DNA from: Waddliaceae bacterium | Lineage (GTDB): Bacteria; Chlamydiota; Chlamydiia; Chlamydiales; Waddliaceae | NCBI GenBank assembly: GCA_963724325.1 | Contig: CAVRUH010000001.1 | Coordinates: 864,001 to 928,000 of the forward strand | Direction: 5' to 3' | Length of the DNA stretch: 64,000 bases | In this document: positions 25,661 to 29,565 of the stretch, piece by piece | How the letters are laid out: each line of letters starts with the position of its first letter | Numbering within the stretch: position 1 is the stretch's first letter | The notes under the pieces: model-generated | What the model was told of the DNA's origin: nothing | The model's database searches: none | The model's input: only the letters and a program-made list of their open reading frames with translations | Made by a program: the position numbers and the translations under genes

Positions 25661-27910
25661 TTAGGATTTGTTCTTGGGTTTGAGGTGATGTACGCCTTCG
25701 GCCATAAGTGCAGGGCCTATTGCTGATTTATACAAAGCACGATCAAAGATGGAATCCTGCAGGTGCACTTCTTCCAATATTTTATGTACAGAACGGAGTA
25801 GCATAGTATCTGAATCCGATGCCATATTGCTATCTGAAACCAGATAGTCATATGGAAGGTGGTTTAAGAGACCGGTTAGATTTCCATCCCACTTTGCTGG
25901 GCGAGTCCATACGTCCAGATAACCATCATCCAACGATTGTTGACTTTTCACGAAAAAACCAACGCGCGGCAGCGGATATTGTGCTTTGAAGACTAAATTG
26001 ACCAGTACGTACAAATCAATGGAAGGAGGTGAAGACTGGTATAAAGCGTGCATCCTTAGTAGAATCTGATTGTTAATTAGATCAAGATGTTCTTTCGCCA
26101 TAAGCCGTGTTTCTTCCTTCATAGATGGTAGCAGATCAGAATGGATAGGGCTAAGGTCCCTGAGATGGTCCATATGTTTTACGATCACTTCGTTCAATTC
26201 ACTTGGAATTTCGCGGTATCCCAATTGAGCTTGTATGTCCCTTGGACCCAGGAGGGATGGTACAAAATGTTCCTTCAGGATAGGATCTGTAAGAAGTGCC
26301 TGATAGGCCTCTGGCAGAGACTCCAAAGGTATTAATGGTGATTTATCACCTCCAATATAGTCTATCTCATCTAAAACGGCTAATACCTGCAAGCGAAAAA
26401 AATCTAGTTCATTAGAACCATAATTTCCACTCCGTAGTCTGGAGGCATTGCTCAGAAGAGTTTTTGCAGCTTTTGAGATCTTTGCATTTGTTAAAGCTAG
26501 TTGCTCTGAAAGTAATACAGCTGTAAGTTGCTTTTTCTTCAGTTGATTATGCACTTCAATGTCTATCATATAGGGAGTAAGGAAGTTTCCTCTTGCCATT
26601 TCGGGAAGCATGTCTCCAGCAATTTCATTGAAGAATGGATCTAGGATCTTCTTTTCACCTTTCATTTCAAAAACGTAAAAGTGCTTGATTTGCTCTGGAT
26701 CTTCCTTAATGTGCTTCCAAGCAAACTTCCAATCTCCATCAAGAGGAAGGTGGTCGTAATCAAATCGTTGCAAATTCCCCCAAATAATAGCCTCTACGTA
26801 TGCAGAACGGCTATATTGAGGATACCCGATTGGAGGATAACTTTCCCCAATAAGTAGTGATAGAAATTTTTCATTTAGCTCGGGTGAAATACTTGCTGGG
26901 TCCTCTACCTGTCGTGCAAGACGCATTGCAGGAATGCTGACTGTCGGAAATTCATCGCGCAGCATATTGACAACTGCAATAATATGAGAGTCTTCCATGT
27001 TAACGTTATGGACTCCCAGTTCCATGCCGAGCTCTTTCACAGGTGCTCCTGCGAAAAAGCTTGTTGAAATAGAGATTTCTTTACCACTGCTAGAACGTAT
27101 TTGATTAAATATCGATCTAAGTTCTGCAAGTTCATTTGGCGTATTTAGAAGTTTTTGAATCTCATGGTCTAGTTGCTCACGCGCCTCTTTATAGGCTCTT
27201 CTTTGTTCAGCGGGTACAGACGTTTCCATTGAAATAGGTTTGCCTTCAAATAGCAACAAAGGACCCTTTTGGGTACTGTAAGGAGCGTCAACATGTAATT
27301 CGACTTTTGCAAGGAACTTTTGTTTTCCCTGCATTTCCACAAGATCAACACCAAGATACAACGATGCAGCAAGCTCTGCAGTATCTCCGGGTTGCAAAGC
27401 CGTATCGACCGCTCCACCCGCACCCAACAAAGCAACTGTGACAGAACCGTTGTTCTCCGCTTCATGAGCAACAATGGGCCTCAACACTGATTTTAGAGTA
27501 GGTCCAACCAAACCAGGTTGCAGCCCCATTTCAGGTAGTCGTACAACATAGGCAGTATTTTCAGGTTTAATATTTGAATGAAAGACGTAGATGTTAAGAT
27601 TCTGCGATTTATCAAGTTTTGACGGAAGGAATGGAATATTTAAGCCTAAAGCTTCAATTTTTTTAGGAAGCCATGAATCGTCTTGAACTAATTGCGGGGG
27701 GATATCGATTAGCCTTTTCCAGTGTGATCCAAGAGGCAGATTTTCGAATGGTGCACTTTCCCGTTCAATAAAAACGACCTGTCTTGGCGGGACCTCTTCA
27801 ATTAGCGCTGGTAGCACTGCAGCAATTTCCTCATCAATAATGCCAAGATGTACCGTTACACCACCGAAAACTAGGTTTGGAATTATAATTAGTAGTTTTA
27901 ATATTTTCAT
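25661..27910 (-). CDS. 749-aa protein with a cryptic N-terminal nucleoside phosphorylase/nucleosidase-like domain and an unknown C-terminal half
   Basis: GGAG RBS; signal-like N-terminus; LLGAGGAVDTALQPGD, ISISTSFF, VHNVNMEDS and AMR in PNP/MTAN order. Confidence 0.5.
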   Translation of the reverse strand: MKILKLLIIIPNLVFGGVTVHLGIIDEEIAAVLPALIEEVPPRQVVFIERESAPFENLPLGSHWKRLIDIPPQLVQDDSWLPKKIEALGLNIPFLPSKLDKSQNLNIYVFHSNIKPENTAYVVRLPEMGLQPGLVGPTLKSVLRPIVAHEAENNGSVTVALLGAGGAVDTALQPGDTAELAASLYLGVDLVEMQGKQKFLAKVELHVDAPYSTQKGPLLLFEGKPISMETSVPAEQRRAYKEAREQLDHEIQKLLNTPNELAELRSIFNQIRSSSGKEISISTSFFAGAPVKELGMELGVHNVNMEDSHIIAVVNMLRDEFPTVSIPAMRLARQVEDPASISPELNEKFLSLLIGESYPPIGYPQYSRSAYVEAIIWGNLQRFDYDHLPLDGDWKFAWKHIKEDPEQIKHFYVFEMKGEKKILDPFFNEIAGDMLPEMARGNFLTPYMIDIEVHNQLKKKQLTAVLLSEQLALTNAKISKAAKTLLSNASRLRSGNYGSNELDFFRLQVLAVLDEIDYIGGDKSPLIPLESLPEAYQALLTDPILKEHFVPSLLGPRDIQAQLGYREIPSELNEVIVKHMDHLRDLSPIHSDLLPSMKEETRLMAKEHLDLINNQILLRMHALYQSSPPSIDLYVLVNLVFKAQYPLPRVGFFVKSQQSLDDGYLDVWTRPAKWDGNLTGLLNHLPYDYLVSDSNMASDSDTMLLRSVHKILEEVHLQDSIFDRALYKSAIGPALMAEGVHHLKPKNKS

Positions 27911-27979
27911 TTTGATCTCCTTCTTGTGTATATTGTGGGCCTATGATATATTAAGTCGAGAAATAACTCAAGGAGATCT

Positions 27980-28804
27980 ATGAATAAGTATTTACCGTCA
28001 TTTTTAATTTTTATTTTTGCAACTGTTTTTCCAATAATAGCAGAAGAGGCTATTTCAGAAGGGCATTCAGAGTATATCACAGGGAAGAAAATCTATGGAA
28101 TTGGAATAAAACAAGATACGATTGCAGGTTCAAAAACCAGTAAAGGAAGGCAGGATCTGACTTCTCCAATTTGGCTAGGTGATTTATCTCGTTACATCGC
28201 ATTAAACACAGAAAGGTTCCGCCTAGTTATTGCAAATGCAAAAAAAAACAACGATCCTTATATCTATTTGCTCAATTATGCCAACGCCTGTTTATTCGAA
28301 AGTCTTAATGAAGGATTGCACACAAAAAAGTCTTTAGATTATTTCCTCGAATCGGCTTGGGCCGTAATGGCAGCTATGCAAGTTGACCGATTTCCCTATC
28401 TAAAATATACATCAGAAGAACGTACTCAAATGGCTGATCAATTTTATGCTTCTTATTTAAATGAACCTTTTGCTACAAATGATGTCGACGGAATAGCTGT
28501 GCGTATGGATCTTGTCCCTGGACTAGCCATGGAGAGACTTGCATTGCATTTAGAACTATGTACGTGGAAGTTTGACAACGCACGTGGATGGGAGTATGAG
28601 GGCTTTCCCATTGGTTATCGCATGGCAAGTCTTAAGCGTCATTTGGACTTTTTGTTTGCCCGTAAGCAAGATGAAGACCACATTGCGCACCTAATCTGGA
28701 ACTATATGGCTATCTATCAGGTTTGCATCACGCATCCGCACCTGAATGATATGCCCAACTACACAGCGATGCGAAAGGAGTCATTATGTCACAACCATAC
28801 TTAA
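27980..28804 (+). CDS. Signal-peptide protein with tandem dATP/dGTP diphosphohydrolase-like (DUF5664/PF18909-like) domains
   Basis: RMDLVPGLAMERLALHLELCTWKF..RGWEYEGFPIGYRMASLKRHL..EDHIAHLIWNYM; degenerate first copy KGRQDLTSPIWL..DYFLESAWAVM. Confidence 0.65.
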   Translation: MNKYLPSFLIFIFATVFPIIAEEAISEGHSEYITGKKIYGIGIKQDTIAGSKTSKGRQDLTSPIWLGDLSRYIALNTERFRLVIANAKKNNDPYIYLLNYANACLFESLNEGLHTKKSLDYFLESAWAVMAAMQVDRFPYLKYTSEERTQMADQFYASYLNEPFATNDVDGIAVRMDLVPGLAMERLALHLELCTWKFDNARGWEYEGFPIGYRMASLKRHLDFLFARKQDEDHIAHLIWNYMAIYQVCITHPHLNDMPNYTAMRKESLCHNHT

Positions 28805-29565
28805 CACCAAAAAAATTACTTGGAGGTCAATTTCCTCCGAATACTTTTGGTGATATCACAGTGGCGATTGTTGGATATTGCCCTCCCGCCGCAATTATAA
28901 ATAAATACAATGCTAAGCAACCACCTGCACAGAATTTTATTCTGCTACCCCCTGAATGCGTACGTGTCTGCAGCCATAATGGCAATCGATTTCTCTCTAT
29001 ATCACATGTTTACGGTGGACCTGTCTCTGCCGCTTTGGTGGAAGAACTGGTCTACTACGGTATCACACATATTCTTGCATATGGTCTCTGTGGCGGATTA
29101 GGAACAAAGCAATTGAAGATAGGTGATTATTATCAGGTAACAAGTGCAAGAGTATCAGATGGAACTACGCCCTCCTATACTACTGATAAGTTGATTTTTC
29201 CTTCGAAGTCATTGGGAGGATTTATTGAATTTCCCAATATGACTCCAGTATGTGCCTGGACTGTTGATGCGATTTATCGTGAATATCCCGATGATGTTCA
29301 GCGTGCCATTGAAGAAGGATGTGATATTGTAAATTGTGATTCGACACATCTTTTTGCTGTCGGGAATAAGCTTGGAATTCAGACCATGCAATGTGGTGTC
29401 GTTTCCGATTTTATAGTTGGTGAAGAGGACGCCTGTTGGGATAGTGAATTGGGAGCGATGTTAGATGGTGGTGAGGGACCTTTGGACAAGTTGAATCCAC
29501 TAGTTGAGTACTACGTGGAAACTCTTTTGCCATTGTGCACTCAGACCGCTATAAACAATAGCTAA
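28786..29565 (+). CDS. Nucleoside phosphorylase (PNP/UDP family) with atypical motifs
   Basis: YGGPVSAALVEEL, GLCGGL, KIGD, DGTTPSY, WTVDAIYRE, VVSD; overlaps the upstream gene by 19 bp. Confidence 0.8.
   Translation: MSQPYLTPKKLLGGQFPPNTFGDITVAIVGYCPPAAIINKYNAKQPPAQNFILLPPECVRVCSHNGNRFLSISHVYGGPVSAALVEELVYYGITHILAYGLCGGLGTKQLKIGDYYQVTSARVSDGTTPSYTTDKLIFPSKSLGGFIEFPNMTPVCAWTVDAIYREYPDDVQRAIEEGCDIVNCDSTHLFAVGNKLGIQTMQCGVVSDFIVGEEDACWDSELGAMLDGGEGPLDKLNPLVEYYVETLLPLCTQTAINNS

Follow-up and report, generated by a model that had tools for sequence, protein, structure and literature searches.

Layout of the locus

The 64,000-nucleotide stretch analysed here, referred to as the window, comes from the genome of a Waddliaceae bacterium (assembly GCA_963724325.1, contig CAVRUH010000001.1, positions 864,001 to 928,000; genome of 2.37 Mb, 85% complete). 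It contains three adjacent genes, called g1, g2 and g3, that code for a probable cryptic nucleosidase, a tandem DUF5664 protein and a protein of the purine nucleoside phosphorylase (PNP) fold, respectively. Their arrangement is as follows, in window coordinates:

25661-27910, minus strand: g1, open reading frame of 749 amino acids
27911-27979: divergent spacer between g1 and g2, 69 bp, with AAGGAGATC as ribosome-binding site on both strands
27980-28804, plus strand: g2, open reading frame of 274 amino acids
28775-28780: AAGGAG ribosome-binding site of g3, inside g2, coupling g3 translation to g2
28786-29565, plus strand: g3, open reading frame of 259 amino acids
29697-31598, plus strand: ispG (GcpE), right border of the locus

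The three reading frames, the 69-bp spacer, the 19-bp overlap of g2 and g3 (28786-28804) and the borders formed by an IS1634 insertion sequence (IS) and ispG had been described in a first-pass annotation of this DNA, and all of them were recovered. An AAGGAG ribosome-binding site lies a few bases 5' of each of the three starts. The gene layout suggests two divergent transcription units; promoter-like and terminator-like sites at the locus showed no excess over chance. Public soil and freshwater runs contain contigs of 151-250 nt that match inside g1 and g3 with zero differences, and one of these (27855-28005) crosses the g1 start, the spacer and the g2 start; one of the two studies behind the identical contigs is possibly the source sample itself. 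The GC content at third codon positions is 0.32-0.35 for the locus genes against a reference of 0.37 ± 0.07, which gives no sign of a foreign base composition.

The tandem DUF5664 protein

The g2 product is built from the following parts:

residues 1-21: signal-peptide-like start; both DUF5664 (PF18909) copies follow within the same chain
28130-28387, plus strand: first DUF5664 copy, about residues 51-136, degenerate, with KGRxDL kept and R-H and E-D-H gone
28499-28747, plus strand: second DUF5664 copy, residues 174-256, with the conserved motifs kept

The Pfam match to PF18909 covers residues 174-256 only (E 1e-5, 25.8 bits) and lies just below the curated cut-off of 27; the genome scan gave 28 bits for g2, and the relative in genome G349 scored 29.7 bits. 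The residues concerned in the second copy are E185-R186, H190, E192, W204, K219-R220-H221, D231-E232-D233-H234 and W240-N241. When the two halves of g2 are compared with each other, BLAST gives an E of 0.026 and the profile comparison a probability (P) of 0.3%; the repeat becomes visible only via single-domain outgroups. Against an HHalign reference profile of 13 single-domain DUF5664 relatives, the second half of the g2 family reaches a P of 99.5% and the first half one of 92.7% (E 4.3e-7, 81 columns). The first copy scored 10.5 bits, compared to a shuffle maximum of 5.9, and four of the nine first halves exceeded the best shuffle, with 1,498 of 1,800 shuffles scored. The RxDL, ERL, W-E, RH, EDH and WN motifs are present in the second copy of all nine non-ciliate tandem proteins, while RH and EDH, which the single-domain proteins conserve, are absent from the first copy, and one ciliate protein lacks them too. 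These comparisons establish, at the level of sequence, that the single chain of g2 contains DUF5664 twice, once in a degenerate copy near the N-terminus and once with the motifs intact.

The structure model of g2 is all-helical, with a predicted local distance difference test (pLDDT) score of 79, and contains two similar sets of helices. Structure searches gave no solved fold match to the model; the best relevant rows of the fold search, found among unrelated bundles, were 5myd (Z 4.6, root-mean-square deviation 4.0, 120 residues aligned) and 1w2y (Z 3.9). The protein may be a pseudo-dimer formed by a single chain, in which only one copy works. E. coli MazG is likewise a tandem all-alpha nucleoside triphosphate (NTP) pyrophosphohydrolase with one inactive copy, and the two share a duplicated helical pyrophosphatase unit in which one copy is degenerate. 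The resemblance is one of design only, however, as profile and structure searches gave no sequence or fold match between them.

The stand-alone DUF5664 enzyme of Arthrobacter phage Wayne converts dATP, dUTP and dGTP into deoxynucleoside monophosphates (dNMP), with a Km of 20 uM for dATP, and in Acinetobacter phage SH-Ab 15497 the domain is fused to DUF550 (PMC12884076). By analogy, g2 would turn dATP, dGTP and dUTP into dNMP and pyrophosphate. The second copy shares the sequence family and the conserved motifs with the phage enzyme, and the first copy belongs to this family only remotely. The differences are the two copies in one chain, one of them degenerate, the signal-like N-terminus, and the occurrence of the tandem form in bacterial, ciliate-code and giant-virus-like hosts. 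A tblastn search of tandem g2 against 50,697 phage records gave no match at E 1e-5.

Signal peptides were judged by hydrophobicity together with a sharp conservation edge in the alignments. By this measure, signal-like starts occur in 7/8 bacterial-type g2 sequences and are absent in the virus-like and ciliate ones.

Six tandem relatives of g2 (38-76% identity) were found in the protein collection. The 400 other chlamydial genomes contributed one more (G349), and metagenome contigs another three (L005, L006 and L007). A g2 scan of general genome contigs gave no match, and the viral scans gave single-domain proteins or nothing. In a tree built from the second copy, a branch with support of 96/94 separates the 11 tandem proteins from 15 single-domain proteins; the tree is midpoint-rooted, and we draw no direction of transfer from it. 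The tandem clade includes another chlamydia, the giant-virus-like contig L005 and the two ciliate-code contigs.

Contig L005 is gene-dense and carries ResIII helicase, papain-like protease, FkbM methyltransferase, U-box and collagen-like genes; it is called giant-virus-like from this gene content, without hallmark genes. Its tandem DUF5664 (L005:5576-6358) is intact and has no signal peptide. Contigs L006 and L007 are ciliate-like: their GC content is 22-23%, and their reading frames are open only when TAA and TAG are read as Gln, with L006 also carrying a tubulin-tyrosine ligase gene. Both encode a diverged tandem DUF5664 with no signal peptide (L006:528-1613 and L007:2056-3027, translation table 6); the L006 protein keeps E-R, R-H and E-D-H, and the L007 protein has lost these motifs.

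The putative nucleosidase

In g1, the following parts can be distinguished:

residues 1-16: signal-peptide-like start
26831-27862, minus strand: probable domain like that of methylthioadenosine/S-adenosylhomocysteine (MTA/SAH) nucleosidase (MTAN), of the nucleoside phosphorylase-I (NP-I) fold, residues 17-360
25664-26830, minus strand: C-terminal part, residues 361-749, mostly helical

Only two relatives of g1 were found, P0010 and P0011, which align over the full length with 58% and 44% identity, and all three sequences have a hydrophobic, unconserved N-terminus. There was no family match in Pfam, NCBIfam or PADLOC, no match in the PDB sequence searches, and no relative in the searched genome contigs, viral contigs and plasmids. 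Foldseek gave no match at E<=0.001, and in a second structure comparison all rows came from one helix pair (helices 458-532). The profile comparison of g1 with the g3 family gave a P of 0.3%.

The assignment of g1 comes from a motif test, in which six windows were defined on five MTAN-like proteins and chained in order. The chain score of g1 is 54.1, compared to shuffle means of 19-31, 20.4 for the reversed sequence and 16.1 for the C-terminal part, and it was reached by 0/200, 1/200 and 0/200 shuffles at block sizes of 1, 10 and 20. Residues E28, M305, E306, R333 and D337 are invariant in all three g1 sequences, the background invariance being 36%, and we take them to correspond to E12, M173-E174, R193 and D197 of E. 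coli MTAN. In the low-confidence model, the order of strands and helices over residues 18-335 is compatible with what we take to be the NP-I topology. On these grounds we consider it likely that g1 carries the nucleosidase (NP-I) fold, and the protein would then hydrolyse purine nucleosides or nucleotides in the manner of MTAN, setting the base free.

The C-terminal part is conserved as much as the N-terminal domain, with 40% of residues 361-749 invariant in the three sequences. At about residues 408-426 (window 26600-26690) it contains a conserved H-F-Y-x9-I-L-D-P-F-F hairpin with no conserved Cys before it, which to our eyes resembles the His...Asp-Pro motif of papain and transglutaminase folds.

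The known systems closest to g1 are the MTA/SAH nucleosidase (MtnN/Pfs) and the ATP nucleosidases Cap17 and DtcC. The likeness consists of the motif order and the probable Glu/Glu/Arg/Asp set in residues 17-360. On the other hand, g1 has no significant sequence match to them and has large insertions, the variants N-M-E-D and R-Q-V-E-D, a signal-like start, a 390-residue C-terminal part and no sensor partner. The first-pass annotation had pointed to PNP-fold effectors of bacterial immunity (CBASS Cap17, Detocs) and to a possible antiviral role of the locus. A reading of this type would be an abortive-infection anti-phage system acting in the bacterial cytoplasm. A putative PNP-fold domain joined to a long extra region in g1 would fit this, and nucleotide depletion is a known defence (bioRxiv 10.1101/2023.01.24.525353). 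The link is weakened by the signal-like N-termini of g1 and g2, by the lack of any PADLOC match for g1, g2 and g3 at E<=1, and by the absence from the locus and its neighbours of any cyclase (CD-NTase), kinase-regulator pair or two-component sensor, or NLR domain; we regard such a system as very improbable here.

The PNP-fold protein

The g3 product has no signal peptide-like start. It matches PF01048 (PNP_UDP_1) with an E of 1.7e-11 and 44.4 bits, above the cut-off of 25.1, and among solved structures DeoD and MTAP in the PDB match it best, though weakly (E ~1e-4), while all NCBIfam scores are far below cut-off. These sequence matches show g3 to be an NP-I (PNP) fold protein. The family search gave 282 matches, of which the 120 listed have 47-55% identity except for one identical fragment; the named relatives among the matches listed belong to Anaerolineae and Chlamydiia. 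In a genome of the same order, the g3 relative starts with the sequence of a protein labelled Chlamydiia, which, like the five TLC-family genes of the window genome, agrees with a chlamydial origin. In the g3 tree, g3 sits on a long branch.

In the alignment, A98-Y99-G100-L101 and N183-C184-D185 of g3 take the places of RVGT and EME of DeoD. We take R-V-G to be the phosphate-binding site and E-M-E the ribose-binding site of the NP-I phosphorylases. The replacements A-Y-G for R-V-G and N-C-D for E-M-E are present in 97-100% of 119 g3 relatives, and because the altered motifs are family-wide, g3 is not a decaying gene; judged by these motifs, its family is a conserved subfamily with a putatively non-canonical phosphate site. 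With the hexameric NP-I phosphorylases (DeoD, Udp, archaeal MTAP) g3 shares the PF01048 match, but g3 and its family are without the canonical R-V-G and E-M-E.

The five relatives of g3 that four chlamydial genomes encode all begin with a signal-like stretch, whereas g3 of the window has none, and the chlamydial members of the family appear to be exported and the Anaerolineae ones not, as predicted from their N-termini. One of these genomes, G395 (L036:8450-10234), carries a tandem pair of genes of the g3 family, and each product has a signal-like N-terminus. In the window genome g3 is the sole PF01048 match, and 101 of 120 genomes of the phylum have one. An AMP-nucleosidase-like PF01048 gene was not found in the window genome, and the same-genus genome G195 has only a sub-cut-off match.

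The first-pass annotation had assigned nucleotide-degrading motifs to all three products, PNP and tandem deoxynucleoside triphosphate (dNTP) diphosphohydrolase folds to the locus, and signal-peptide-like starts to two of the proteins. The motifs are borne out for g2 (PF18909) and g3 (PF01048), and are only probable for g1, from its motif chain; in the same way the tandem DUF5664 assignment of g2 follows from profile comparison, and the PNP fold holds for g3, through PF01048 and the PDB matches, and is probable for g1. The two starts are those of g1 and g2, recognised by hydrophobicity and conservation edge, with export itself being a prediction. In the structure check set by the first-pass annotation, g1 gave only a low-confidence model and no Foldseek match, and g2 gave the all-helical model.

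Occurrence of the genes in other genomes

Among the 400 other chlamydial genomes, g1 has no relative, g2 has relatives in three (G349 with the tandem form, G067 and G230 with single-domain forms) and g3 in four (G279, G299, G306 and G395), with no genome shared between them. Loci L005-L010 contain no g1 or g3. Outside these genomes, a g1 relative, P0010, and a g2 relative, P0006, are JGI proteins that each come from a contig of 12,629 bp, and judged from this equal size they very likely share one contig; among the 120 g3 relatives listed (of 282), no contig has this size. Because only P0010 and P0006 appear to share a contig, with no g3 there among the matches listed, the pair g1 and g2 is probable and the trio is unsupported. 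The conserved three-gene system proposed in the first-pass annotation is therefore not supported, as g1-g3 do not occur jointly in any of the other chlamydial genomes, and g3 belongs to a family of 282 matches with a distribution of its own.

A single catabolic pathway of all three genes, leading from dNTP via dNMP and nucleoside to base and possibly including the HD phosphohydrolase at window 22623-23636, is accordingly improbable. It would be consistent with the g2-g3 overlap and coupled translation, with the pairing of DUF5664 and a different phosphorylase fold in G067, and with the arrangement in G299, where an HD homologue lies tail-to-tail with the g3 homologue. In addition to the zero co-occurrence in 400 genomes and the lack of a g3 relative on the 12,629-bp contig among those listed, it is opposed by g3 lacking the signal-like start of g1 and g2, which would put it in another compartment, and by HD not being found in three of the four other g3 genomes. 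The HD gene itself is YedJ-like, below cut-off, and occurs in 18/399 other genomes; the G299 homologue (39-44%) is at L035:8820-10509.

In G349 (L008:6613-13838) the tandem DUF5664 gene starts 15 bp after purB and is followed by a 626-residue gene, purA and guaB, the latter two within 4 kb of it. A link to PurZ was ruled out, the G349 neighbour scoring as canonical purA with no purZ beside the tandem gene. In G067 (L010:3145-6641) there is a four-gene run. Its first two genes are P-loop kinase-like, and one of them has a signal-like start; the third resembles pyrimidine nucleoside phosphorylases but is extended at the N-terminus; the last is a single-domain DUF5664 that has a signal-like start and a 19-bp overlap with the phosphorylase-like gene. 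This run is possibly a better candidate for a nucleotide-processing operon. The context of DUF5664 in G349 and G067 is nucleotide metabolism; the neighbours in G230 are uninformative, and those in G101 appear phage-like. The single-domain gene of G230 (L003:1483-1890) has an in-frame TAA just before KGRFDL and is probably broken.

In G195, a polyketide-synthase-like cluster (L034:1514-11040), judged from N-terminal sequences, lies 5' of ispG and replaces g1-g3, and queries with the window proteins gave no match to g1, g2 or g3 in that genome. This suggests that the site 5' of ispG is a variable spot, where g3 would have joined separately. One may then ask whether g1 is a nucleosidase, or linked to g2, at all, the locus being simply three unrelated accessory genes at a variable site. 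The other genes at the same site in G195, the presence of g2 alone in G349, and the lack of any family, structure or confident profile match for g1 all point in this direction. Against it stand the ordered MTAN motifs with invariant residues at catalytic positions in g1, the equal contig size (12,629 bp) of P0006 and P0010, and Atlas feature matches of g1 to PNP-clan clusters (0.81-0.83), which are a lead only. We find this explanation unlikely.

Proposed function

Our preferred reading, to which we assign a probability of about 45%, is that g1 and g2 form a two-gene unit of probably exported enzymes that would break down nucleotides of host origin before these enter the cytoplasm of the chlamydia, g3 being separate. 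The signal-like N-termini predict Sec export of both proteins to the periplasm or the inclusion. There, g2 would remove dATP, dGTP and dUTP or damaged forms ahead of import, and g1 would release bases from host-derived nucleotides. The overall job would be the editing of the nucleotide stream ahead of five NTT/TLC-family transporters, by taking out deoxy, uracil-bearing or damaged nucleotides. The g3 protein would cleave nucleosides in the cytoplasm and might supply Upp with uracil. The window genome has five TLC-family genes, and upp is present.

Several observations weigh against this proposal. The recurrence of g1 and g2 as a pair is probable, and this pairing rests on equal contig size; the contig of P0011 has 18,748 bp, and no g2 match was found on a contig of that size, and G349 has g2 without g1. 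For g1, the AlphaFold model from three sequences has a mean pLDDT of 46 (blocks of about 40-88 in the N-terminal domain), direct profile comparison with PNP sets gave an HHalign P of 4-8%, and in HMMER only P0010 among the three sequences scored clearly above shuffles. Four of the six motif windows are at the expected places in g1 and two are off, and the motif test was designed after candidate motifs had been seen. The region 361-749, about 390-400 residues, gave no family or fold match in profile and structure searches. For g2, the catalytic residues of DUF5664 are putative, assigned from conservation. Finally, PF00156 has five matches in the window genome, and the four examined are prs, upp, pyrE and one unnamed gene, with neither apt nor hpt among them in a genome that is 85% complete; because no apt or hpt was identified, purine bases freed by g1 would be without evident use.

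Another option is that g1 and g2 are secreted effectors, which would drain dATP, dGTP and ATP in the protist cytoplasm and thereby slow host replication or block giant-virus factories. The signal-like N-termini of g1 and g2 fit this as well, as do the purine-base salvage that is not evident in the window genome and the richness of the window in effector-like genes (ankyrin, F-box, patatin). MTAN-related PNP domains act as (d)ATP nucleosidases in immunity (bioRxiv 10.1101/2023.01.24.525353), and Parachlamydia blocks the maturation of virus factories, for which effectors are presumed (PMC9457554). However, a Sec signal by itself would take the proteins no further than the periplasm, so that a second export step would be needed, and an ATP parasite would presumably damage its own supply. 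The tandem enzyme is also found on the giant-virus-like contig L005, so it is not antiviral by nature, and the gene contexts in G349 and G067 are metabolic. With g1 in 0/400 and tandem g2 in 1/400 other genomes, the genes are moreover too rare for a general defence. We consider effectors of this kind unlikely. A more specific version, in which the secreted pair starves giant-virus factories by draining host dATP, dGTP and ATP and in which a phage Z-genome enzyme has been passed among symbionts, giant viruses and ciliates, is in our view quite unlikely.

Surroundings of the locus

The left border and the wider window contain the following features:

23906-25648, minus strand: broken IS1634, with g1-g3 outside the element
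23949-23964 and 25590-25605: terminal inverted repeats of IS1634, 16 bp
23906-23949 and 25605-25648: perfect 44-bp direct duplication bounding IS1634
1095-1578: low-complexity hexamer repeat
9005-10066: collagen-like gene
15577-18612: ankyrin gene
31976-35330: patatin and F-box genes
53106-55082: another F-box-like gene

Pieces of the IS1634 transposase (NF033559) lie left of g1. The element was considered as the carrier of g1-g3 and ruled out: it did not bring them, because its own 44-bp duplication closes before g1, and it has no cargo. At least five IS relatives, 73% identical, are found elsewhere. IS1634 was inserted at the end of a long, MITE-like palindromic element (MITE, miniature inverted-repeat transposable element; window 23713-23924, arms of 104 nt, 90% complementary), making the 44-bp duplication, and many partial copies of this palindromic element are present on at least eight contigs. 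The last five features in the list above are eukaryote-like effector candidates, typical of environmental chlamydiae.

Implications

In the literature search, which left most subscription papers outside, we found no description of a tandem or chlamydial DUF5664 or of a chlamydial signal-bearing nucleosidase, and no work linking the Parachlamydia block of giant viruses to dNTPs. The tandem, probably exported DUF5664 and its probable cryptic nucleosidase partner are thus probably a new form of known enzyme families. DUF5664 has been described as a phage enzyme, and the single-chain tandem chlamydial form with a signal-like start extends the family to the protist world, where the ciliate-code proteins would give it a eukaryotic home. 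The tandem DUF5664 is also a purifiable enzyme. Should the two enzymes work in the periplasm, this would mean that nucleotide parasites edit their imports. If the pair acts in the host, the question of how chlamydiae block giant-virus replication would become testable, and the depletion of host nucleotides, if true, would be a molecular mechanism for defensive symbiosis.

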